This document shows positions 15,051 through 28,959 of a stretch of 64,000 nucleotides of DNA, one piece after another. The translations under genes were made by a program, and so were the position numbers. The DNA is taken from NCBI RefSeq assembly GCF_044324875.1, contig NZ_CP172185.1; one strand, given 5' to 3'. This DNA is from Escherichia coli. GTDB taxonomy: Bacteria; Pseudomonadota; Gammaproteobacteria; Enterobacterales; Enterobacteriaceae. A model generated the notes under the pieces. The model had not been told where the DNA came from, made no database searches, and saw only the letters and a list, made by a program, of their open reading frames with translations. Position 1 is the stretch's first letter. Each line of letters opens with the position of its first letter.

Positions 15051-16451
15051 ATGAGCGTTGTGCCTGTAGCCGACGTACTCCAGGGCCGCGTAGCCGTTGA
15101 CAGCGAAGTCACCGTGCGCGGATGGGTACGTACCCGCCGAGATTCAAAAGCTGGCATCTCCTTCCTCGCCGTTTATGACGGTTCCTGCTTTGATCCTGTA
15201 CAGGCTGTCATCAATAATTCTCTGCCCAATTACAATGAAGACGTCTTGCGTCTGACCACCGGCTGCTCGGTCATTGTGACGGGTAAAGTCGTGGCGTCGC
15301 CGGGCCAGGGGCAACAATTTGAAATTCAGGCCAGCAAGGTTGAAGTTGCTGGTTGGGTTGAAGATCCAGACACTTACCCGATGGCGGCAAAACGCCACAG
15401 CATTGAGTATCTGCGTGAAGTCGCTCACCTGCGTCCGCGCACAAACCTGATTGGTGCCGTCGCGCGCGTTCGCCATACGCTGGCGCAGGCGCTGCATCGC
15501 TTCTTTAACGAGCAGGGATTCTTCTGGGTTTCAACGCCACTGATTACTGCGTCTGATACCGAAGGGGCTGGCGAAATGTTCCGCGTTTCTACGCTGGATC
15601 TGGAAAACCTGCCGCGTAACGATCAGGGCAAAGTGGATTTCGACAAAGACTTCTTTGGTAAAGAGTCTTTCCTGACCGTATCTGGCCAGTTGAACGGCGA
15701 AACCTACGCTTGCGCATTGTCCAAAATTTATACCTTCGGCCCGACTTTCCGTGCTGAAAACTCCAACACCAGCCGTCACCTGGCGGAATTCTGGATGCTG
15801 GAGCCGGAAGTGGCGTTTGCTAACCTGAACGATATTGCGGGTCTGGCTGAAGCCATGCTGAAATATGTCTTCAAAGCGGTTCTCGAAGAACGCGCTGACG
15901 ACATGAAATTCTTCGCTGAACGCGTAGATAAAGATGCCGTTTCACGTCTGGAACGCTTTATTGAGGCCGATTTCGCGCAGGTGGATTACACCGACGCAGT
16001 GACCATTCTCGAAAACTGCGGCAGGAAGTTTGAAAACCCGGTTTACTGGGGCGTCGATCTCTCTTCTGAGCATGAGCGTTATCTGGCGGAAGAACACTTT
16101 AAAGCACCGGTAGTGGTTAAAAACTATCCGAAAGATATTAAAGCGTTCTATATGCGCCTTAACGAAGACGGTAAAACCGTTGCGGCTATGGACGTTCTGG
16201 CTCCGGGCATCGGTGAGATCATTGGTGGCTCCCAGCGTGAAGAGCGTCTGGACGTGCTGGACGAGCGTATGCTGGAAATGGGCCTGAACAAAGAAGATTA
16301 CTGGTGGTATCGCGATCTGCGTCGCTACGGTACTGTTCCGCATTCCGGTTTCGGTCTTGGTTTTGAACGCCTGATTGCTTACGTAACAGGCGTGCAAAAC
16401 GTGCGTGATGTGATTCCGTTCCCACGTACTCCACGTAACGCCAGCTTCTAA
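15051..16451 (+). CDS. asnS: asparagine--tRNA ligase
   Basis: Start taken at [13 protein letters not shown] inside listed ORF; 466 aa; class II aaRS C-terminus ([15 protein letters not shown]). Confidence 0.95.
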
Positions 16452-16464
16452 TTTAGCGTCTTCA

Positions 16465-16493
16465 AGAGCCAGCGCCCGCTGGCTCTTTTTTTA
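16465..16493 (+). terminator. rho-independent terminator of asnS
   Basis: Hairpin gagccagcgcccgctggctc followed by a T7 run. Confidence 0.7.
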
Positions 16494-16603
16494 TCCTTTC
16501 TGTCAAGTTATCTGTTTGTTAAGTCAAGCAATCTATTTGCAACCCCACCATAACGATCATCCTGTTACGGAATATTACACTGCAACATTTGCGCACAAAA
16601 AAT

Positions 16604-16634
16604 AATCCGCATTCTTATTGCGGATTAGTTTTTT
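16604..16634 (+). terminator. second hairpin plus T-run in asnS-ompF intergenic, immediately abutting IS200 left end
   Basis: aatccgca-ttcttat-tgcggatt (8-bp stem) followed by agtttttt; the IS200-shared sequence starts right after. Confidence 0.5.
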
Positions 16635-17346
16635 GTGCACAGAAAACCCCCAGCTAGGCTGGGGGTTCCGGAAAGCTTTCAGCTTTGAGCCAGTTATTAA
16701 AACCCCTTTTGATTTGTTAAAACACCTTGCGGTCTGGCAACTGCAAGTGTCAAACAAGAAATCAAAAGGGGGTCCCAATGGGGAACGAAAAGAGCTTAGC
16801 GCACACCCGATGGAACTGTAAATATCACATAGTATTTGCGCCAAAATACCGAAGACAGGTGTTCTACAGAGAGAAGCGTAGAGCAATAGGCTGTATTTTG
16901 AGAAAGCTGTGTGAGTGGAAAAGTGTACGGATTCTGGAAGCTGAATGCTGTGCAGATCATATCCATATGCTTGTGGAGATCCCGCCCAAAATGAGCGTAT
17001 CAGGCTTTATGGGATATCTGAAAGGGAAAAGCAGTCTGATGCTTTACGAGCAGTTTGGTGATTTGAAATTCAAATACAGGAACAGGGAGTTCTGGTGCAG
17101 AGGGTATTACGTCGATACGGTGGGTAAGAACACGGCGAAGATACAGGATTACATAAAGCACCAGCTTGAAGAGGATAAAATGGGAGAGCAGTTATCGATT
17201 CCCTATCCGGGCAGCCCGTTTACGGGCCGTAAGTAACGAAGTTGGATGCAAATGTCAGATCGTGTGCGCCTGTTAGGGCGCGGCTGGTAAGAGAGCCTTA
17301 TAGGCGCATTTGAAAAACCTCCGGCTATGCCGGAGGATATTTATTC
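16634..17346 (+). mobile_element. IS200 insertion sequence, copy 1 (IS200/IS605 family, about 713 bp)
   Basis: Limits set by where the sequence stops matching the second copy (23755..24469, inverted); contains tnpA, a left-end hairpin cccccagc-tag-gctggggg and an RBS-sequestering stem; ends are approximate to within 3 bp. Confidence 0.85.
16778..17236 (+). CDS. tnpA: IS200 transposase TnpA (HUH Y1 transposase)
   Basis: 152 aa from MGNEKSLAHTRWNCKYHIVFAPKYRR...; the HxH motif (ADHIHMLVEI) is visible and the protein closely resembles Salmonella IS200 TnpA as recalled from memory. Confidence 0.9.
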   Translation: MGNEKSLAHTRWNCKYHIVFAPKYRRQVFYREKRRAIGCILRKLCEWKSVRILEAECCADHIHMLVEIPPKMSVSGFMGYLKGKSSLMLYEQFGDLKFKYRNREFWCRGYYVDTVGKNTAKIQDYIKHQLEEDKMGEQLSIPYPGSPFTGRK

Positions 17347-17559
17347 TTAGCTGATAGCACAATTTTCATACTATTTTTTGGCGTTCTGGATGTCTGAACG
17401 AGGATTTAGTGCCAGGTCGATAAAGTTTCCATCAGAAACAAAATTTCCGTTTAGTTAATTTAAATATAATGAAATCATATAAATAGATAAATATTGCTGT
17501 AAATATCATCACGCTTCTATGGAAATATGACGGTGTTCACAAAGTTCCTTAAATTTTAC

Positions 17560-17764
17560 TTTTGGTTACATATTTTTTCTTTTTGAAACCAAACCTTTAT
17601 CTTTGTAGCACTTTCACGGTAGCGAAACGTTAGTTTGAATGGAAAGATGCCTGCAGACACATAAAGACACCAAACTCTCATCAATAGTTCCGTAAATTTT
17701 TATTGACAGAACTTATTGACGGCAGTGGCAGGTGTCATAAAAAAAACCATGAGGGTAATAAATA
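17560..17764 (+). promoter_or_regulatory. ompF promoter with OmpR-binding region and 5' UTR (micF target)
   Basis: Sequence ttttacttttggttacatattttttctttttgaaaccaaa...ttgacagaacttattgacggcagtggcaggtgtcataaaaaaaacc matches my recollection of the K-12 ompF promoter/OmpR F1-F3 region. Confidence 0.55.
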
Positions 17765-18853
17765 ATGATGAAGCGCAATATTCTGGCAGTGATCGTCCCT
17801 GCTCTGTTAGTAGCAGGTACTGCAAACGCTGCAGAAATCTATAACAAAGATGGCAACAAAGTAGATCTGTACGGTAAAGCTGTCGGTCTGCATTATTTCT
17901 CCAAGGGTAACGGTGAAAACAGTTACGGTGGCAATGGTGACATGACCTATGCCCGTCTTGGTTTTAAAGGGGAAACTCAAATCAATTCCGATCTGACCGG
18001 TTATGGTCAGTGGGAATATAACTTCCAGGGTAACAACTCTGAAGGCGCTGACGCTCAAACTGGTAACAAAACGCGTCTGGCATTCGCGGGTCTTAAATAC
18101 GCTGACGTTGGTTCTTTCGATTACGGCCGTAACTACGGTGTGGTTTATGATGCACTGGGTTACACCGATATGCTGCCAGAATTTGGTGGTGATACTGCAT
18201 ACAGCGATGACTTCTTCGTTGGTCGTGTTGGCGGCGTTGCTACCTATCGTAACTCCAACTTCTTTGGTCTGGTTGATGGCCTGAACTTCGCTGTTCAGTA
18301 CCTGGGTAAAAATGAGCGTGACACTGCACGCCGCTCTAACGGCGACGGTGTTGGCGGTTCTATCAGCTACGAATACGAAGGCTTTGGTATCGTTGGTGCT
18401 TATGGCGCCGCTGACCGTACCAACCTGCAAGAAGCTCAACCTCTTGGCAACGGTAAAAAAGCTGAACAGTGGGCTACTGGTCTGAAGTATGACGCGAACA
18501 ACATCTACCTGGCAGCGAACTACGGTGAAACCCGTAACGCTACGCCGATCACTAATAAATTTACAAACATCAGCGGCTTCGCCAACAAAACGCAAGACGT
18601 TCTGTTAGTTGCGCAATACCAGTTCGATTTCGGTCTGCGTCCGTCCATCGCTTACACCAAATCTAAAGCGAAAGACGTAGAAGGTATCGGTGATGTTGAT
18701 CTGGTGAACTACTTTGAAGTGGGAGCAACCTACTACTTCAACAAAAACATGTCCACCTATGTTGACTACATCATCAACCAGATCGATTCTGACAACAAAC
18801 TGGGCGTAGGTTCTGACGACACCGTTGCTGTGGGTATCGTTTACCAGTTCTAA
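17765..18853 (+). CDS. ompF: outer membrane porin F
   Basis: 362 aa, [22 protein letters not shown] signal peptide, C-terminal ...VGIVYQF. Confidence 0.95.
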
Positions 18854-18878
18854 TAGCACACCTCTTTGTTAAATGCCG

Positions 18879-18910
18879 AAAAAACAGGACTTTGGTCCTG
18901 TTTTTTTTAT
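18879..18910 (+). terminator. rho-independent terminator of ompF
   Basis: Hairpin aacaggactttggtcctgtt followed by a T8 run. Confidence 0.75.
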
Positions 18911-19037
18911 GCCTTCCAGAGCAATCTCACGTCTTGCAAAAACAGCCTGCGTTTTCATCAGTAATAGTTGGAATTTTGTAAATCTCCCGTTACCCTGATA
19001 GCGGACTTCCCTTCTGTAACCATAATGGAACCTCGTC

Positions 19038-20228
19038 ATGTTTGAGAACATTACCGCCGCTCCTGCCGACCCGATTCTGGGCCTGGCCGATCTGTTTCGT
19101 GCCGATGAACGTCCCGGCAAAATTAACCTCGGGATTGGTGTCTATAAAGATGAGACGGGCAAAACCCCGGTACTGACCAGTGTGAAAAAGGCTGAACAGT
19201 ATCTGCTCGAAAATGAAACCACCAAAAATTACCTCGGCATTGACGGCATCCCTGAATTTGGTCGCTGCACTCAGGAACTGCTGTTTGGTAAAGGTAGCGC
19301 CCTGATCAATGACAAACGTGCTCGCACGGCACAGACTCCGGGTGGCACTGGCGCACTACGCGTGGCTGCCGATTTCCTGGCAAAAAATACCAGCGTTAAG
19401 CGTGTGTGGGTGAGCAACCCAAGCTGGCCGAACCATAAGAGCGTCTTTAACTCTGCAGGTCTGGAAGTTCGTGAATACGCTTATTATGATGCGGAAAATC
19501 ACACCCTTGACTTCGATGCACTGATTAACAGCCTGAACGAAGCTCAGGCTGGCGACGTAGTGCTGTTCCATGGCTGCTGCCATAACCCAACCGGTATCGA
19601 CCCTACGCTGGAACAATGGCAGACACTGGCACAACTTTCCGTTGAGAAAGGCTGGTTACCGCTGTTTGACTTCGCTTACCAGGGTTTTGCCCGTGGTCTG
19701 GAAGAAGATGCTGAAGGACTGCGCGCTTTCGCGGCTATGCATAAAGAGCTGATTGTTGCCAGTTCCTACTCTAAAAACTTTGGCCTGTACAACGAGCGTG
19801 TTGGCGCTTGTACTCTGGTTGCTGCCGACAGTGAAACCGTTGATCGCGCATTCAGCCAAATGAAAGCGGCGATTCGCGCTAACTACTCTAACCCACCAGC
19901 ACACGGCGCTTCTGTTGTTGCCACCATCCTGAGCAACGATGCATTACGTGCGATTTGGGAACAAGAGCTGACTGATATGCGCCAGCGTATTCAGCGTATG
20001 CGTCAGTTGTTCGTCAATACGCTGCAGGAAAAAGGCGCAAACCGCGACTTCAGCTTTATCATCAAACAGAACGGCATGTTCTCCTTCAGTGGTCTGACAA
20101 AAGAACAAGTGCTGCGTCTGCGCGAAGAGTTTGGCGTGTATGCTGTTGCTTCTGGTCGTGTGAACGTAGCCGGGATGACACCAGATAACATGGCTCCGCT
20201 GTGCGAAGCGATTGTGGCAGTGCTGTAA
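19038..20228 (+). CDS. aspC: aspartate aminotransferase
   Basis: 396 aa; PLP lysine motif [14 protein letters not shown]. Confidence 0.95.
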
Positions 20229-20243
20229 GCGTTAAAAACAATG

Positions 20244-20272
20244 AAGCCCGCTTAAAAAGCGGGCTTTTTTAT
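20244..20272. terminator. bidirectional terminator between convergent aspC and ycbL
   Basis: Hairpin aagcccgcttaaaaagcgggctt flanked by A-run and T-run. Confidence 0.7.
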
Positions 20273-20278
20273 GCGCCT

Positions 20279-20926
20279 TTACCAGACGGGCATTTCGTCT
20301 TGCAGGAAGGGATTATGCAGGCGCTCATAACCAAGTGTGGATAATGGTCCGTGACCCGGAATAAATGTCACGTCATCCCCCAGTGGCAGCAATTTATCTT
20401 TGATTGAAGAAATCAGTTGATTATGATCGCCACGCGGGAAGTCACTGCGCCCTACTCCACCTTTGAAAATAACATCGCCAGAAATCAGCAGCTTTGCCCG
20501 ATCATCAAAAAATACGACATGACCCGGCGTATGCCCAGGGCAATGTAACACCTGTAAAGCCACATTCCCTATGCTGATGGTATCGCCTTCGTTCAGCCAA
20601 CGATCTGGCGTCAGCGGCTGGCACTCTTCCAGACCAAACATACGACTTTGCGCAGGCAAGCCTTGCAGCCAGAACTCATCTTCTTTTTCCGGGCCAAAAA
20701 CCGGCACGCCGTAATGTTGCGCCAGTTCCGCCGCTGCGCCAACGTGGTCCAGATGACCATGCGTCAGCAGGATCTGCATCAGTGTCAGGCCGCTGGCATC
20801 AACTTCCTGTTTGATTTTTTCCGCATCGCCGCCAGGATCGACCAGTGCGGCCAGTCGGGTTTGTTCACACCAGATCAATGAACAGTTCTGGGAGAATGCG
20901 GTGACCGGAATAATACGATAGTTCAT
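20279..20926 (-). CDS. ycbL: metallo-beta-lactamase fold hydrolase (glyoxalase II-like)
   Basis: 215 aa with THGHLDHVG metal-binding motif. Confidence 0.88.
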
Positions 20927-20952
20927 ACTGCCCCTGTTTCGTTAAGCGATTG

Positions 20953-21501
20953 CTACCAGTGCCGTGCTGGCCCGGTATCAATATGCACAAAGTTACTACG
21001 TGGGTAATATCCTACACCACCTGCGCGCATAGATAACGCGGCTTTGCGAATATTGCTTAACGCGATACCTTCAATATGGAAATCCATCGCCTGCCCTTTC
21101 GTGTGATAGCTTTTCTTCGCTACTCCACGGCTGCGGGCGCGTAGTTCATTGTTGGTATCAATGGAACGATAACCGGAAATGAGTTGCACCGGTTTGCGGG
21201 TGCCTAACAACCCTTGCAGGCGATACAACTGGTCGAATAATCCTGGGTCGATGGACTTTATTTTGTTCGCGCGGTAATCGCGGAAAAAATGGTTAAGTTT
21301 TGCCAATTCTTCCTGAATATAGCCTCTGCCATCGAAAAACTCCGCTTTGATTGACTCTCCGGTATGAAGATTATTGAGTGTCAAAATGCGCGGGCGTGGG
21401 GTAGAGAGTGTTGCAAACGCAGGGGTCGGCAGGATGGCGGCACCGAGTGCAACGCCACCAAGCGCCAGCAGTTTGCGGCGATTAGCGTCGAATTTGTCCA
21501 T
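20953..21501 (-). CDS. mepK: peptidoglycan LD-endopeptidase MepK (YcbK; Tat signal)
   Basis: Start taken at MDKFDANRRKLLALGGVALGAA (twin-arginine-like) inside listed ORF 20953..21510; 182 aa. Confidence 0.85.
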   Translation of the reverse strand: MDKFDANRRKLLALGGVALGAAILPTPAFATLSTPRPRILTLNNLHTGESIKAEFFDGRGYIQEELAKLNHFFRDYRANKIKSIDPGLFDQLYRLQGLLGTRKPVQLISGYRSIDTNNELRARSRGVAKKSYHTKGQAMDFHIEGIALSNIRKAALSMRAGGVGYYPRSNFVHIDTGPARHW

Positions 21502-21681
21502 GATAATCAAGTCTACAGGTCAATGTTATCGTTTATATGCACTTCTGGCGCACAAGAGGCACCTTAACCGTCAGTAAAGCTGACGTCAAGATGACTCAAC
21601 CCCAGCAGTGACGGGGGCTGCAGAGAATCGCCCCCGATCATGCTAATTATTACGACAACTGATTTCCCCGAACTGCTTCAT

Positions 21682-23529
21682 TTACCTGATTAATTGTTCC
21701 GCTTTCGATACGATTTGCGAGCTGGATCGCGCAGGCAGATCATAATTGTAAATATCTGTACGATACTGGGTACGACCATCTGCACCAACAAAGGCAGTCA
21801 GGTAGTAGAGATTCACCGGAATCGACTGCCGAATATTGACGTAACGCGTATCGCCCTGCTTCAGCGCATCAGAAATACGTTTGTCATTCCATCCTGCATC
21901 CTGCAACAGCATATTCGCCAGATCAGAAGCTTTATTCACTCGTACACAGCCTGAGCTCAATGCGCGTGTATCACGCTTGAACAGATTGTGGTTCGGCGTG
22001 TCATGCAAATAAATGGCCTCTGAACTCGGCATATTGAATTTATAGCGCCCCAGCGAGTTCCGTGGGCCTGGAGCCTGCTGGAAGCGAAACGGTAAATTCG
22101 AGGCCGTGATTGTAGACCAGTCAACCTGCCATGGGTCAATCGCTTCTCTGCTGTTCCAGCCGCGCATCACCGTATAGCCATGGCTTTCGAGATATCCCGG
22201 ATCGTTGCGCACTTTCGGCAGAATATCTTTGCGTGCCAGAGTTGGTGGTACGTTCCACGGCGGGTTTACCACTACGTTGTTAAGTGCACTGCTCATCATC
22301 GGCGTTTTGCGATCGGGGCGACCGACAATGACTCGCGAATCCAGCACCTGATTGCCGTTCTGATAGTAGACCAGCGAATAGGCCGGAATGTTAACCATGA
22401 TCCCGGTAGAAAGCTCTGTTGGCAGCAAGCGCAATCGCTGGATGTTGAGTGCCAACACGCCAGCACGCTGGGCGGGCGTTACGTTTAACCAGTCACGCGT
22501 TGCCGGGCCAATAGCGCCATCTGCTCCCAATCCTTGCCATGCCTGAAAACGTTTAACGGCTTCCACCAGTTCATTATCGTAGGCGGCACGAACGGCAGGC
22601 GCAGGTTTACTACGAGACGTCGTTTGCTTGTCCATCGGCTTAGTTTCTGCTGTTTCAACAGTAACAGCGGATGGGCTGACTACCGTGTCAGTTGGCGTGT
22701 CATCGCCAGGTAGAGTAATTTTCGGCCCCCCGTCCAACATGCCTGTGCGTTGCAATATTTCGCGCAACGCCGGTACGTCGTTACTCCACTGCCCTGGGCG
22801 CAACGTTGCTTTACCGGTCAGTTGAGGCCACGGTTTGGTGTCACTGAGTAAGGCCAGTAACGATTCATGCATCGCCGCATATTGCGGATGCTGCGGTGCC
22901 AGTCCTGCAACAAACGTCGGCAATTGACCTTTATCCAGCGCCAGCTGCCATTGGTTAATCACCGAAAGCGGCGGCGTTGCAAGCGCATAAGGTTTACTGC
23001 TATATAGCCAGCGAGTGCCTTTGACCGGAATATTTGCAATGAAATGGAGATAGCCCATCATCGCATCAGAGAGCACGACGTCGCGTGCCATCCCGTTAAC
23101 ACCAGGATCGGTCAGTAACTCTACCCATTTATTAAACTGCGGCTGGAAACCGGCAATCGCCACCTCGGCCAGCTGTTGCTGGAAGGCTTTAACAGCATCA
23201 CGGTTTTCCCACATGGGTTGCATATCGCGTGCGGCATACAACAGTTGAAGCTGGTTAAGATAAACCGGCTTGTAACCTGCGGGTAATTGAGATTCGATTT
23301 GCGTGCGGGCTTTTTCTGCCGCACCTTCAGGCAATGGCTGGATCCCCGCCATTATTGCCGTGGCTTGCGCCTGCGGCAGTGCCTCGCCCTGTTCACTGAC
23401 AGCCACCGGGCTGTCGCCAGGGATTACTTCAGGCTCATCGGCCTGCGCATTGAACAGTGGAGCGAATGTTACGGCCAGGCACAAACTGATTGCCGACAGC
23501 CGACGACCACACATCATATTAAGCAACAT
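21682..23529 (-). CDS. ldtD: L,D-transpeptidase LdtD (YcbB)
   Basis: 615 aa with signal peptide and YkuD-type catalytic region (HDTPNHNLF...SSGCVRV). Confidence 0.9.
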
Positions 23530-23754
23530 CCCTTGCCCCCTGTTTTTATCATACTCTGAATAGCCAGGCTGTTATTTTACGACTTACCTGTACAACGCCA
23601 ATACTCACGAAAGTATGACGAGCAAGCCTGTTACTCATCAGGCTTATCTTCAGTATATAAACGCCGATACGTTTTTACATAACCTAATGTAAAGAAGTTT
23701 AAAGAAAAGCGCGCCGTAATGTGCCACTTTTTTAGTGCAGAAACGGAGTTTTCG

Positions 23755-24469
23755 GAATAAATATCCTCCGGCATAGCCGGAGGTTTTTCAAATGCGCCTA
23801 TAAGGCTCTCTTACCAGCCGCGCCCTAACAGGCGCACACGATCTGACATTTGCATCCAACTTCGTTACTTACGGCCCGTAAACGGGCTGCCCGGATAGGG
23901 AATCGATAACTGCTCTCCCATTTTATCCTCTTCAAGCTGGTGCTTTATGTAATCCTGTATCTTCGCCGTGTTCTTACCCACCGTATCGACGTAATACCCT
24001 CTGCACCAGAACTCCCTGTTCCTGTATTTGAATTTCAAATCACCAAACTGCTCGTAAAGCATCAGACTGCTTTTCCCTTTCAGATATCCCATAAAGCCTG
24101 ATACGCTCATTTTGGGCGGGATCTCCACAAGCATATGGATATGATCTGCACAGCATTCAGCTTCCAGAATCCGTACACTTTTCCACTCACACAGCTTTCT
24201 CAAAATACAGCCTATTGCTCTACGCTTCTCTCTGTAGAACACCTGTCTTCGGTATTTTGGCGCAAATACTATGTGATATTTACAGTTCCATCGGGTGTGC
24301 GCTAAGCTCTTTTCGTTCCCCATTGGGACCCCCTTTTGATTTCTTGTTTGACACTTGCAGTTGCCAGACCGCAAGGTGTTTTAACAAATCAAAAGGGGTT
24401 TTAATAACTGGCTCAAAGCTGAAAGCTTTCCGGAACCCCCAGCCTAGCTGGGGGTTTTCTGTGCACAAA
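23755..24469 (-). mobile_element. IS200 insertion sequence, copy 2 (inverted relative to copy 1)
   Basis: Reverse complement matches copy 1 over the full element including tnpA (identical 169-aa ORF translation); ends set by loss of identity. Confidence 0.85.
23865..24323 (-). CDS. tnpA: IS200 transposase TnpA
   Basis: ORF translation identical to the copy-1 ORF; 152 aa from MGNEKSLAHT... Confidence 0.9.
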   Translation of the reverse strand: MGNEKSLAHTRWNCKYHIVFAPKYRRQVFYREKRRAIGCILRKLCEWKSVRILEAECCADHIHMLVEIPPKMSVSGFMGYLKGKSSLMLYEQFGDLKFKYRNREFWCRGYYVDTVGKNTAKIQDYIKHQLEEDKMGEQLSIPYPGSPFTGRK

Positions 24470-24492
24470 GAAAAGGCGGCATTGCTGCCGCC
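24470..24492 (-). terminator. rho-independent terminator of mukB, abutting IS200 copy 2 left end
   Basis: Hairpin ggcggcagcaatgccgcc followed on the minus strand by ttttcttt, 5 nt after the mukB stop. Confidence 0.65.
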
Positions 24493-24498
24493 TTCATT

Positions 24499-27400
24499 TT
24501 AACTCGCTTGGGAAGGCACTTCGTCACTTCCAGGAAGCGTTTCAGGGAGTTGCGGCGCAAATCCTCGCAGGCCGACGACGTGAACGTGTTCGGTATTCTG
24601 GAAGACTTTACGCACCAGTTTATAGGTGGTGCCTTTTTCCGGACTGATATTTTCCGGCGCTGCGATGATGAGCTGCATTTGCAAACGTTCACACAATTCA
24701 AACAGCGTGGCGATAGAACGAGCATCCAGTCGCGCTGCTTCATCGAGGAACAGCAGGCGGCAAGGAGAGATATCTTTACCGCGCAGGCGGCGAGATTCAT
24801 CTTCCCAGCTTTGTACCACCATCACCAGAATCGACATACCGGTACCAATCGCCTCACCGGTCGACAATGCACCAGACTCTGCGCGCAACCAGCCATCAGA
24901 ACCACGGTTAACCTCAACTTCCATTTCCAGATAGTTGCGGTAATCCAGCAGTTCTTCGCCAATGGTCTGCGGCGTGCGCTGCCCCATATCAATCTGCGGA
25001 TTAAGACGCTGATACAATTTCGCCAGCGCTTCCGAGAAGGTCAGACGGTTGCTGTTAAACAGATCCTGATGCTGCTCATGCTGTTCAGAGAGCACATCCA
25101 GCAGCATGGCGTGCGTTTCACGCACGTTCACGTTGAGGCGCACGCTGTTCACCTGACCAAACGATACGTTCTGCAACCCCTGGTTGAGCATACGGATACG
25201 GTTCTGCTCGCGCTGAATGGTTTTGCGAATGATGTTCGCCACGCTGCGGGAACTGATCGCCAGTTTCTGTTCGCGGGAGGTTAATTCTTCGGTCAGACGG
25301 CTAAGTTCGATCTCCATCTGTTCGATAGCTTCCACCGGATCATCGGTACGAATAATATCCTGACGAATACGTTCACGCAGATGCTGATAAACCGCCACGA
25401 AGAACTGAATTTTACGCTCCGGACGTTTCGGATCTTCCGACATGCGCAGCACGTCGCGCAGATGTTCGTTATCCGCCACCGCCAGACGCAGCGCACCTAA
25501 CGCCTTATCCGACATAGAGCGCAAATCATCAGCGGAGAGATAAGCCAGCTCACGACGGTGTAAGCGACGCTCAACGCCGTTATCTTTCACCATGCGCATG
25601 ACTGCACACCAGCCCGCTTTCGCGGTCACTACCTGCTCGCGCATCTCAAAGTAATCCCGCTCCAGCTTGCGCAGTTTGCGGGTCAGGTTGTCCATCTCTG
25701 CTTCGCAGAAGGTAAGCGCTTTTTCCAGTTGATTGCGGCGTGAACGGTTATTGCTCAGTTGCGCGTGCAACTCGTCACGGCGAATACGCGCCCGCTCTTC
25801 TGCCCCGCTATCAGCTCGCACGCCGATATCCTGCAATTCACGTTGCAGATCATTGAGTAGCTCTTTTTTGGTGTCGTAAGAACTTTTCAGCGAAGCCAGC
25901 ACCTGGTTGTACTGACTCAACTGCGCTGCGTGTCCGCGCAACGCTTCACGCGCGCGGGTACGCTCCGCTTCCGCCTGTTCCAGACGTTCACGCAGTTTTT
26001 CGTTGAGATCGCTGTTACCGCTAAGCATTTCTGCCGAGTCAGAGTAGCTAAAGTGCGCACGACGTTGCACCACTTCCGTCAGGGCAAACGCCTGCTGACG
26101 GGCATCGCGCTGCATCTGCTGAGAGTACGCGTAATCTTCTTTTAACTGTTCGAACTGTTCCGGGTCACTCTGCAATACCGAAACGATCGGTTCCAGTTTC
26201 GCCAGTTGATTACCGAACTGCTGAACAAAACGCGCGGCTTCCTGGGCTTCATCCAGACGTTCGCGGATTTCATCGACGCGATCCGCCAGGCTGTCATCAG
26301 CCAACAAGTTGAGACGCGGCAGAATGCGGTTCAGCGCCGTAACACCCTCTTTCGCCTGCTCAAACTGAATACGCTGCTGCTGGTTATCATTTTCATGATT
26401 ACTCAACGCCCGCTCCAGTTCGACGCGACGGCTGTTCAGTTGACGGATTTCTGCTTCCGGGTCAGACTCAAACGCCACCGCCAGATGACTACCTATAAAG
26501 CGGCTGAATGCCTGATGCAGACGCTGGGTTTTCTGTACATCAAAGGAGAGCGTGGCGAAGCGTTCGGAAAGCACTTCACGCTCGGCATGGAGGCTTTCAA
26601 TACGGCTTTCACGCGCAGCACGACCAAACAGCGGCACTTCCGGGAAACGTGAATAACGCCACTGACGATCGGCGATTTTCACCACTACCGCTTTTTCCAG
26701 CTCATCAACGCTGAACACGCTGTCATCGAATGACTGCGGATCCCCTTCGATCAGATAGAGATCTTCCGGGCAATCGGTCAAGCCTTCCAGGTGCTCGGTT
26801 ACCTGTGACAGATCTGGCACCACGATGGCGTGGCGTGACGGGCCATACAGTGCCGAGAAGTACGGCGCATCTTCCAGACTCACGTCGTCATAAATTTCGG
26901 ACAGCAGCACGCCGCCAAAACGCTCCGCCAGCGCATTCAAACGCTGGTCTTCAGAACCACCTGGCTGGCTTAAACGTTCGATCTCTTCATCGACGGCGTT
27001 TTTGCGCGCGCCTACTTCATCGCGTTCAACAATGGCTTCGCGCTCACGCTCCAGCAACTGTTGCAGATATTCGGTGACATCCTGGCTAGAGGAGAACTCT
27101 TCGCCGCACTGTTCGCTCAACTGGTTGAGGCTGTTTTGCGCAGCCAGCCAAACCGGCGCACGCTGCATCAAACTCTGAATGCGAGACTGCAGCTGTTCCT
27201 GTTCCTGGCGCAGAGCCATGCGCTCTTCACGGGCGTTAGACACGCTATCGGAAAGAGAGGCAATGCGTGCTTCCAGCTCCTGATGCAGAGCTTCCAGTTC
27301 ATCAATATCAAAATTCTTGCCCTGACGTTTGCAGAAATCTGCCAGCAGGCGTTCGGCTTCTTGCTGCTCGCGCAGACGCTGTTCCAGTTCGCTTAAGCGC

Positions 27401-28959
27401 ATCCGCAACGGTTGAACCTGCTCTGCCAGGTGACGCTGATCGACCCCTTCGCGCAATAGTTCGCGAGCGACATCCCACGCCTCGTTACGCGCCAGCGGGC
27501 CATTAATTGCCACCACCAGCTGATAAGCCTGCTCAAACTGGCTGTGTGCGGTTTGCGCCATGCTCATTTTCTGCTCAAGAGAGAGCATTTTTTCAGTCGC
27601 TTCCAGCTCTTTCGCCTGGAAGGTTTCCAGCCATTCGGCGGCGCTGTCGGCGGTTAAGTCCGGCAGATGGCACAGTTCTTTGGCACGATTAAGCGCAGCA
27701 ATCGCCTGGTTATACTGGATCGCGCGCGTTTGCTGGACGTCCAGCGCCTGCTGATAGTCAGCAAGCTGGCTTTTCAGCTCGTCCACTTCCAGTTCGGCAG
27801 CTTCCGCACGAGCCTCGTTCTCTTCCTGGCGTTCGATGGCTTCTGCCACCACTTCGTTTTGCTCTTCCAGACGGATCTGCAGCTCATCGAGATCCGCTTC
27901 GTAACGTTCGATCTTCTCCTGCTGACGCAGTGCGGTTTGCACCAGGTTCAGGTGATCGCTGGCCGCCTGATAATCTGCTTCCAGATCGCCTTCGGCACCG
28001 TTGTGCTCTGCCAGCTCACGCGCCATATCGACGTGTTTGTACTGCTCAGCCGCCAGTTGCTGACGCGAAGTGTGTAGCTCGCGACGAAATTCCAGGGCTT
28101 TGTCGAGATGGACACGGCGCTCGTTGGCGTGACGCATGTAGTCCGCCGCCACGTAGTTGGTGGCTTCGCTGATCAGATGCTTAAACAGGTCACGGTCCGA
28201 CTGGGTGACACGAATCGCTTCCAGCGTCATGCGGTTTTCGCGCAGCGCCGCTTCCATGTCCTGGAACGCTTTCCGCACGCCGCTGTTTTCCGGCAACAGG
28301 TAGTCGCGCAGAGAGCGCGTAATGGCGCTGGAGATCCCGCCGTACAGCGAAGCTTCGATCAGACGATAGAATTTGCTACGGTCAGACGCTGAGCGCAGAC
28401 GACGCGCGATGATGCCCAGATCGAACATCAGCGAGTGGTAATCGGTAATGGAGTTGAACTGCTTAAACTGCACGCCTTCCATCGCCTCGAGCTTGTCTTT
28501 CAGCTCGTTCAGCGGCAGTACACGCGCCTGGCGTTCGTTGAGGGTTTCGGTCACCAGCTGCGTCGGCAGCACCGACATCGGCAGGCCCTGAATGGCAAAC
28601 GGTTTGATATCGACTTTACGATCGCGTCCGGCAACCTGTTGCAAACGCACACCGACCACCACACGCTGGTGGCGCGAGTTAATGGTGTCGAGCATCGAAT
28701 AACAGACACCCGCTTTCAGCTTACCGTGCAGACCTTTATCGCGCGAACCGCTGGTGGCCCCGGCTTCCGTGGTGTTACGGAAATGCAGCAGGGTCAGGTC
28801 GGGGATCAGCGCCGTAACGAACGCCGCCATGGTGGTGGATTTACCCGCCCCGTTACCGCCGGAGAGCGTCGTAACCAGCTCATCGAGGTCAAAAGTTCGG
28901 GCAAAAAAGCCGTTCCAGTTAATCAGCGTCAGTGAGCGAAATTTACCGCGTTCAATCAT
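24499..28959 (-). CDS. mukB: chromosome partition protein MukB (SMC-like condensin)
   Basis: 1486 aa; N-terminal Walker A (GGNGAGKST), long coiled-coil middle, C-terminal ATPase tail. Confidence 0.95.

Follow-up and report, generated by a model that had tools for sequence, protein, structure and literature searches.

Introduction

IS200 elements are among the most widespread and smallest autonomous insertion sequences (IS). Their closest described relatives, IS608 and ISDra2, share with IS200C, the element studied here, the transposase family, subterminal hairpins, the lack of terminal inverted repeats and the absence of target duplication; they also insert 3' of a short motif that is kept in the left flank, and their bias towards the lagging-strand template may have a counterpart in IS200C. 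In IS608, a guide tetranucleotide, AAAG, located 5' of the hairpin, recognises the cleavage sites and the target TTAC by base pairing (PMC5934647), and use of the lagging-strand template and of the single-stranded DNA (ssDNA) of replication forks has been reported for the IS200/IS605 family (PMC5027513). As far as we could find, target choice by IS200 had not previously been defined as it has for IS608 and ISDra2. Here we describe two copies of IS200C in a 64,000 nt stretch of the Escherichia coli contig NZ_CP172185.1 (assembly GCF_044324875.1), hereafter called the window, and the host structures to which their left ends are joined.

For IS608 and ISDra2 a short motif suffices (TTAC and TTGAT, respectively) and no target secondary structure has been described, whereas IS200 has a hairpin 5' of the motif at 92–98% of its junctions. 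The IS200 motif is a degenerate T-tract and, unlike those of IS608 and ISDra2, it is cut at varying Ts. IS200C also differs from both in carrying no tnpB. An A-rich tetranucleotide is found 5' of each IS200C hairpin, matching the location of the guide sequences in IS608. Cleavage site and left-end hairpin are separated by about 10 nt in IS200C and by about 19 nt in IS608.

Class C (IIC) group II introns likewise target terminator stem-loops that precede a short T-rich motif, and a link to replication as the source of ssDNA has been reported for them (PMC7923331). The net effect, a safe site behind genes, is the same as for IS200, but these introns depend upon a ribozyme and a reverse transcriptase, with reverse splicing and retrohoming, whereas IS200 has neither and relies on a 152 aa HUH transposase and its DNA ends. 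Features of group IIC introns are absent from the element, as its sole open reading frame (ORF) codes for a Y1 transposase and an Rfam scan of positions 16000–25000 gives only STnc490, the small RNA family of IS200, in both copies. A third group, the IS associated with repetitive extragenic palindromes (REP; IS1397, ISKpn1, ISPpu9 and ISPpu10), and the REP-associated tyrosine transposases (TnpA-REP or RAYT), which are Y1 relatives of IS200 TnpA, use extragenic host hairpin repeats as landmarks (PMC1525189, PMC3333891). Their targets are members of one specific repeat family, whereas the hairpins used by IS200 all differ and have in common only their structure and T-tail. The window TnpA scores 31.4 bits against the REP_Tyr_transpos model (cut-off 80) and falls outside the RAYT group.

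A recent preprint ('Unwelcome guests', doi 10.1101/2025.07.22.666184) gives, in its Supplementary Table 1, a terminator upstream of and outside the element in 40.2% of 20,314 IS200-family copies, compared with at most 7.1% in other families. The pattern is read there as a regulatory niche that limits transposase expression, and the experimental support cited concerns the internal terminator. The part of that text covered here contains no nucleotide-precise junction, empty sites, recurrent hits, right-end mimicry or targeting mechanism. Apart from these statistics, a full-text literature search, whose scope lay outside the classic IS200/IS1541 papers and the 2015 family review, returned no explicit description of terminator targeting by IS200 or IS1541. 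The junction rule described below is thus partly anticipated by the preprint, and an earlier description may exist.

Results and Discussion

Left Junctions in the Window

Both copies of IS200C are joined at their left ends directly to the last T of a host hairpin plus T-run, and with the same polarity (Table 1). The hairpin used by copy 1 lies in the asnS-ompF spacer, is bordered by a 5' A-run and a 3' T-run, and has a DNA folding energy of -11.8 kcal/mol (z = -7.2 against dinucleotide shuffles). It contains just four G:C pairs, is found about 135 nt past the asnS terminator, and is predicted from its sequence to be terminator-like only. Copy 2 lies behind mukB, and the hairpin at this junction folds with the same energy (-11.8 kcal/mol, z = -4.4); the structure has the predicted layout of an intrinsic terminator, with a stem-loop and then a T-run after the end of a co-oriented gene.

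An earlier note on this DNA had drawn attention to these hairpins and T-runs beside both left ends, and to the shared polarity of element and hairpin. Both observations are borne out, at 16603–16634 and 24492–24467, and the polarity is the same at the further junctions described below. The elements were said to begin 1–3 nt after the T-run, a count that treated the last Ts as shared sequence, but they follow it directly (0 nt), and the end of copy 2, which had been placed near 24469, is at 24466. Because flank and element both end in TT, the cut position is uncertain by up to 2 nt.

Empty Sites

In 10 of 10 IS-free loci that encode an identical AsnS, the asnS-ompF hairpin and its T6 run are uninterrupted (...GCGGATTAGTTTTTT/CTTAGCT, where the slash marks the junction). 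The empty allele, ...AGTTTTTT/CTTAGCT, compares with the filled allele, ...AGTTTTTT/GTGCAC...TTTATT/CTTAGCT, and therefore the hairpin and T6 run are host-derived, the insert is exactly 711 bp, and nothing has been duplicated. At mukB, strain K-12 has no IS, and the hairpin is followed by TTTTCTTTTT and then CCGAAA; a query made of the joined flanks gave one continuous match in 5,307 of 5,425 RefSeq E. coli genomes. Empty sites in K-12 were also found at htpX (T7/ATGCCC) and rnb (TTTATT/T), and the asnS terminator, which is empty in the window and filled in E. coli strain MEW, provides a fifth site with a known empty state. For luxS, a 30-mer search of K-12 found no empty site.

Across these five loci (the asnS-ompF hairpin, the asnS terminator, htpX, rnb and mukB), comparison of filled and empty alleles shows no target-site duplication, and at three of them (the asnS-ompF hairpin, the asnS terminator and htpX) the T-run has the same length in both states. 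The hairpins are host DNA outside the element, as the earlier note had held, and the comparison with IS-free genomes that it had proposed in advance came out accordingly, with hairpins and T-runs intact and nothing duplicated. The only irregularities are one additional T at junction L011 and, at mukB in the window, a T-run (TTTTCTTT, with no T remaining to its right) that falls 2 nt short of the K-12 run; the other full-length empty-site matches at mukB are likewise 2 nt longer than the joined flanks. Either slippage after insertion or an imprecise event would account for this deficit. An alternative definition of the element, as 709 bp ending in ...TTTA, suits the window mukB allele when compared with K-12, but does not fit the asnS-ompF hairpin, the asnS terminator, htpX or two further mukB alleles, and was rejected.

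At the E. coli htpX/yebQ locus (L020, compared with L250 of K-12), the insertion interrupts the TAA stop codon of yebQ, a convergent gene whose last bases overlap with the T-run of the shared terminator. The terminal TT of the element restores the stop codon, leaving the gene unchanged.

Generality of the Junction Rule

Among E. coli contigs encoding an identical TnpA, nine of nine intact junctions have the same arrangement, including seven distinct ones beyond the window. In these seven, a hairpin, a T-run and GTGCAC follow one another, and the co-oriented upstream gene ends about 35–80 nt before the element. A protein-based scan of species-representative genomes yielded, among the matches listed, at least 13 intact left ends that could be aligned to IS200C, at least 11 of which are clear cases; the hosts among these matches are Vibrio, Edwardsiella, Budvicia, Erwinia, Brenneria, Sutterella, Bacillota metagenome-assembled genomes (MAGs), Marasmitruncus and a Saccharibacteria MAG. 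Searching metagenome contigs for the left-end motif brought the total to 133 junctions, 104 of them non-redundant. The survey of other IS200 copies suggested in the earlier note thus supplied some 120 further independent junctions with the same order and polarity of hairpin, T-run and left end, across a range that extends from Enterobacterales to Bacillota.

A hairpin was scored if it had at least 5 bp, at least three G:C pairs, a loop of 3–9 nt, at most one mismatch, and a 3' arm within 14 nt of the junction. By this measure it is present at 96 of the 104 non-redundant left junctions, and at 102 if loops of up to 12 nt are allowed. At least four of the last six nucleotides are T in 102/104 junctions, and the left-flank consensus is TTT(T/a/g)TT (TTTNTT), in which T reaches 97% at positions -5 and -2 and 88% at position -1. 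This short motif, 3' of which the element inserts, stays in the left flank, and the T-tract is more degenerate than TTAC or TTGAT. From the last G:C pair to the junction the median distance is 7 nt, with 75 of 102 targets at 6–8 nt. The flanking hairpins, more than 100 in number, all differ in sequence.

The arrangement extends to related elements. Two further TnpA variants, taken from metagenome contigs, fit at 15 of 15 junctions; one of them occurs mostly on short contigs, three of which are without the left-end motif. Four of four other elements also fit, namely Salmonella IS200F and IS1541A of the Yersinia pestis plasmid pMT (both drawn from a plasmid collection), Clostridium perfringens IS200S and an element of Staphylococcus warneri. 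At 62 divergent loci (66–92% aa identity), strict terminator-like structures cluster with the end of the T-run 131–160 nt before the tnpA ATG, and are nearly absent elsewhere across the region from -450 to 0; 25 of the 62 fall outside the strict definition, most of these visibly showing a hairpin with a shorter T-run.

With regard to genes, 56 of the 96 junctions with enough flanking sequence are located no more than 120 nt past the end of a co-oriented ORF that codes for at least 150 aa. The longest-ORF rule was used for this count, as a nearest-ORF version is confounded by shadow ORFs on the opposite strand. The remaining junctions lie behind short genes or RNA genes, or behind further intergenic hairpins, of which the copy 1 hairpin is an example. 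In one metagenome contig (L108), the insertion follows a terminator directly 3' of an apparent tRNA 3' end (...TTCAAGTCCCGCCCTGGGCACCA), and terminators of RNA genes may be used besides those of protein genes.

Some copies depart from the intact form. In E. coli LT903847.1, two IS200C copies (L014 and L018) have no normal left end and abut a gene for a 457 aa DDE transposase (Tnp_DNA_bind, DDE_Tnp_1), and the same kind of gene is found at the right end of L015; another IS may have inserted into or beside IS200 in these cases. In the plasmid collection, 1,653 records match IS200C, mostly E. coli plasmids, and 175 contain at least 80% of the element. Most of the plasmid matches are the same truncated pieces (nt 1–337 or 571–711), which suggests old, fixed fragments of common plasmid backbones.

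Control Sites and Recurrent Insertions

For comparison, run-end sites matching TTTNTT were collected from 1.08 Mb of host DNA of the same contigs and scored for hairpins in the same way. A hairpin is present at 11.9% of such sites in coding sequence, at 11.0% in non-coding sequence (137/1242), and at 29.5% within 100 nt after a co-oriented ORF. The 96 of 104 seen at IS junctions is far above both the non-coding controls (Fisher p = 3e-71) and the post-ORF controls (4e-24). At the right-end flanks of the elements, hairpins occur in 5/36 and T-rich sequence in 1/36.

Some terminators have been struck more than once. In the mukB T-run, the element follows T2 in EC2257 (TT/IS/TTT), T5 in E300010 and T3 in the window, representing at least two, and probably three, independent events; an IS insertion is present at this site in 97 of 5,426 complete RefSeq E. 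coli genomes. In the asnS-ompF spacer, the window element is at the second hairpin while that of strain MEW lies 143 nt upstream, directly after T7 of the asnS terminator, and E300010 has tnpA at the same 185 nt offset from the asnS stop codon as MEW. The exact site of copy 1 carries no insertion in any of the 5,426 genomes. The luxS terminator is occupied in E. coli and in a second genome, where both the luxS hairpin sequence and the TnpA variant are different.

These data bear upon the possibility that IS200 is directed by sequence alone to the 3' side of TTTNTT-like motifs, and that selection among the insertions then produces the association with hairpins as a survivorship effect. Such a preference for T-tracts is very strong in our set, as the canonical model of guide and cleavage site predicts; insertions after terminators spare both genes and terminators, and more than half of the junctions with enough flank do lie close behind a co-oriented ORF. 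However, hairpin-less non-coding T-run sites outnumber hairpin-associated ones by about 8:1 in the same contigs (1105 versus 137), and even in the 100 nt behind co-oriented genes, which is presumably equally neutral ground, a hairpin accompanies 30% of sites as against 92–98% of IS junctions. The same terminator has been hit independently at different Ts, orthologous terminators have been hit in two genomes by different variants of the element, and the arrangement is kept across phyla of very different genome architecture. Repeated, precise hits on the same terminators mean that survivorship alone would not suffice. Given the controls and these recurrent hits, a T-tract preference combined with selection is disfavoured, and we regard it as an unlikely explanation.

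Strand Distribution

Judged by local GC skew, 56 of 73 copies (77%) have their top strand on the G-rich host strand; where the absolute skew exceeds 0.02, 45 of 51 do. The corresponding baseline for genes in the same contigs is 61% (binomial p = 0.003). The excess is in the direction expected from use of the lagging-strand template, and is a mild argument against a purely transcription-coupled model. An assignment of orientation from K-12 gene positions, which placed seven of nine E. coli sites on the lagging-strand template, was too small and was dropped in favour of GC skew.

In a transcription-coupled model, the ssDNA would be the non-template strand at a paused or terminating RNA polymerase, and the hairpin would matter as a functional terminator. 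The insertion point does coincide with the usual point of RNA release, at the end of the U-tract 6–8 nt after the stem, the strand carrying the element is the one that corresponds to the transcript, and genuine 3' ends of co-oriented genes or RNAs make up most targets. The strand bias, with the G-rich strand serving as lagging-strand template, is not predicted by such a model in its pure form. Little transcription is expected at the copy 1 hairpin, which is weak, A/T-rich and well past the asnS terminator, and the family is known to use replication-fork ssDNA (PMC5027513). Coupling to termination appears improbable, marginally more so than targeting by sequence and selection. As for the hairpin and T-run belonging to the element, travelling with it or being created by it as its true left terminus, the copies do share a few extra Ts beyond GTGCAC and the element's own ends are rich in hairpins, but the intact hairpins and T-runs at element-free sites of five loci, the unchanged T-run length at three of them and the differing sequences of all the flanking hairpins refute this reading, to which we give almost no credence.

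Proposed Targeting Mechanism

We consider it likely that IS200-group elements actively select a composite target, a hairpin plus T-tract in ssDNA, and join to the 3' end of the T-tract. Elements with tnpA only would move by single-strand 'peel and paste', and the window element would, by analogy with its family, pass through ssDNA intermediates in this way. The proposed target consists of a stable, G+C-rich hairpin and, 3' of it, a T-rich tail of about 6–8 nt, which together would be the DNA image of an intrinsic terminator; on the strand reading hairpin and then Ts, the left end would join this tail at its 3' end. The ssDNA that serves as target may be mainly the lagging-strand template.

The analogy with IS608 suggests that an A-rich guide beside the left-end hairpin probably reads the T-tract. 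In IS200C this hairpin is preceded by AGAAAA, and the AAAA directly 5' of its C-rich stem is conserved in nearly all relatives; pairing of AAAA with the target could read TT(N)T. The left-end hairpin has been described as a bidirectional terminator at nt 12–34 (PMC4513863).

The right end has a comparable layout. Across relatives it consists of GAAAAA, an 8 bp G+C stem and a 9 nt tail, AT(A/T)TTTATT, and the stem covaries with compensatory changes (CCTCCGGC, CCACCGGC, CCCCCGGC, CCGCCGGC and others). A terminator scan flags it as terminator-like. Both the targets and the right end have a hairpin and a T-tail ending in TT, and therefore the target resembles the element's own right end. The filled left junction (host hairpin, about 7 nt, cut, 10 nt, left-end hairpin) is also similar in geometry to the right-end/left-end junction of the excised circle. 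No tandem right-end/left-end dimers were seen by eye among the listed junctions.

The host hairpin may therefore act as a structural determinant in ssDNA by mimicking the right end (hairpin, ATATTTATT, cut). It could alternatively be that the folded stem keeps the neighbouring T-tract accessible, or that the hairpin is read through the termination complex. Structure-guided, single-strand targeting 3' of terminator-like structures had been suggested in the earlier note, and the survey supports this reading by showing a near-obligatory association with hairpins; recognition of the hairpin as an ssDNA structure is inferred. A more specific proposal is that TnpA binds the host terminator hairpin and T-tail as a surrogate right end, thereby rebuilding the circle's right-end/left-end junction at the left junction, and this we advance only tentatively, as it is rather less probable than its negation. 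If true, it would represent structure-directed target choice of a kind undescribed for the IS200/IS605 family, operating from Proteobacteria to Firmicutes and without an RNA guide, and would make the element a natural, compact, safe-harbour single-strand integrase.

Several points weigh against active selection of hairpin plus T-tract. Only surviving insertions are visible, and selection must contribute to some degree. The founding insertion, hisD984, is reportedly inside a coding sequence, in which case the rule is not absolute. Two junctions (L121 and L025) have no convincing hairpin and that of L061 is weak, the spacing between hairpin and junction is variable (mostly 5–10 nt), and the position of the cut within a given T-run can vary from T to T. 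The strand bias is modest, and local GC skew is a noisy proxy for the direction of replication. The apparent requirement for a hairpin comes from sequence data, and in the IS608 model both hairpin sites of the TnpA dimer are filled by the element ends during integration, with no obvious site for a target hairpin (PMC5934647).

A rule of insertion at terminator ends would explain why IS200 copies are nearly always intergenic and harmless, and how they persist at moderate copy number. We propose that, as a consequence, the upstream gene keeps its full terminator while the element occupies an insulated, low-cost site, fitting its benign and quiescent reputation; the upstream host terminator, together with the neighbouring left-end hairpin of the element, would provide transcriptional insulation. 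The convergence with group IIC introns, and the question of how a minimal HUH enzyme reads DNA structure, are of wider interest, as is possible site-directed integration of single-strand DNA behind genes. For annotators, the rule offers a simple prediction of insertion hot spots and a definition of the element ends. Terminators can also be recurrent, homoplasic insertion sites, which matters where IS200 or IS1541 is used for strain typing or phylogeny.

The Window and Its IS200C Copies

The window is E. coli-like, with 98–99.7% identity to RefSeq E. coli, and the features discussed above are listed in Table 1. The two copies of the element are 100% identical across 711 bp and lie in opposite orientation; in E. 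coli genomes, the Prokaryotic Genome Annotation Pipeline (PGAP) names the same element IS200C. Each contains a single ORF of 152 codons. The TnpA protein matches NF033573 (transpos_IS200) with 145.9 bits (cut-off 55), and PF01797 is found on a protein identical to it. Its HUH motif, DHIHM, and conserved Tyr region align with the solved TnpA structures 2ec2, 2a6m and 2xm3, and its relatives in the PDB include the TnpA proteins of IS608 and ISDra2. No terminal inverted repeats are present, and DNA folds show subterminal hairpins at both ends. In its transposase, its size, its ends, the lack of target duplication and insertion 3' of a short motif kept in the left flank, the element shows defining features of the IS200 group, and is a bona fide member.

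Table 1. Coordinates of IS200C, its host targets and neighbouring genes in the 64,000 nt window.
Feature	Position	Strand	Remarks
pncB			first in gene order
asnS	end 16451	+	
asnS terminator	16464–16492	+	hairpin + T7; unoccupied in the window
Host hairpin, asnS-ompF spacer	16603–16627	+	TAATCCGCA-TTCTTAT-TGCGGATTA; 9 bp stem, 7 nt loop; target of copy 1
Host tail	16628–16634	+	GTTTTTT; copy 1 joined right after final T
IS200C copy 1	16635–17345	+	711 bp, GTGCACAG...GGATATTTATT; first nt G16635
Left-end subterminal hairpin, copy 1	16645–16667	+	AACCCCCAGC-TAG-GCTGGGGGTT; element nt 11–33; starts 10 nt from tip
STnc490 match, copy 1	16645–16768	+	Rfam; encloses left-end hairpin
tnpA, copy 1	16778–17236	+	Y1 HUH transposase, 152 aa
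Right end, copy 1	17318–17345	+	hairpin CCTCCGGC-TAT-GCCGGAGG + 9 nt T-rich tail ATATTTATT
ompF	17765–18853	+	
aspC			follows ompF
ycbL			follows aspC
ycbK			follows ycbL
ldtD	21682–23529	-	
IS200C copy 2	23756–24466	-	element nt 1 at 24466; left-end hairpin 24434–24456, right-end hairpin 23765–23783
tnpA, copy 2	23865–24323	-	same product as copy 1
mukB host T-run	24474–24467	-	TTTTCTTT; copy 2 joined directly after
mukB terminator hairpin	24492–24475	-	GGCGGCAGCAATGCCGCC; stem starts 6 nt past mukB stop; can extend to 24495–24472
mukB stop codon	24499–24501	-	
mukB	24499–28959	-	

The inverted, identical copies flank 6.4 kb of sequence carrying ompF, aspC, ycbL, ycbK and ldtD, and homologous recombination between them could invert this segment. 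The genes in it have the order and orientation of K-12, and therefore no inversion between the two copies has happened.

Copy 1 lies about 420 nt 5' of the ompF ATG (17765), within the long ompF regulatory region. The distal OmpR site F4, which we take to be at about -380 to -350 from the transcription start, would be just to the left of the insertion point. If this position is correct, F4 is now 711 bp farther from the promoter-proximal sites, and the osmoregulation of ompF could be changed.

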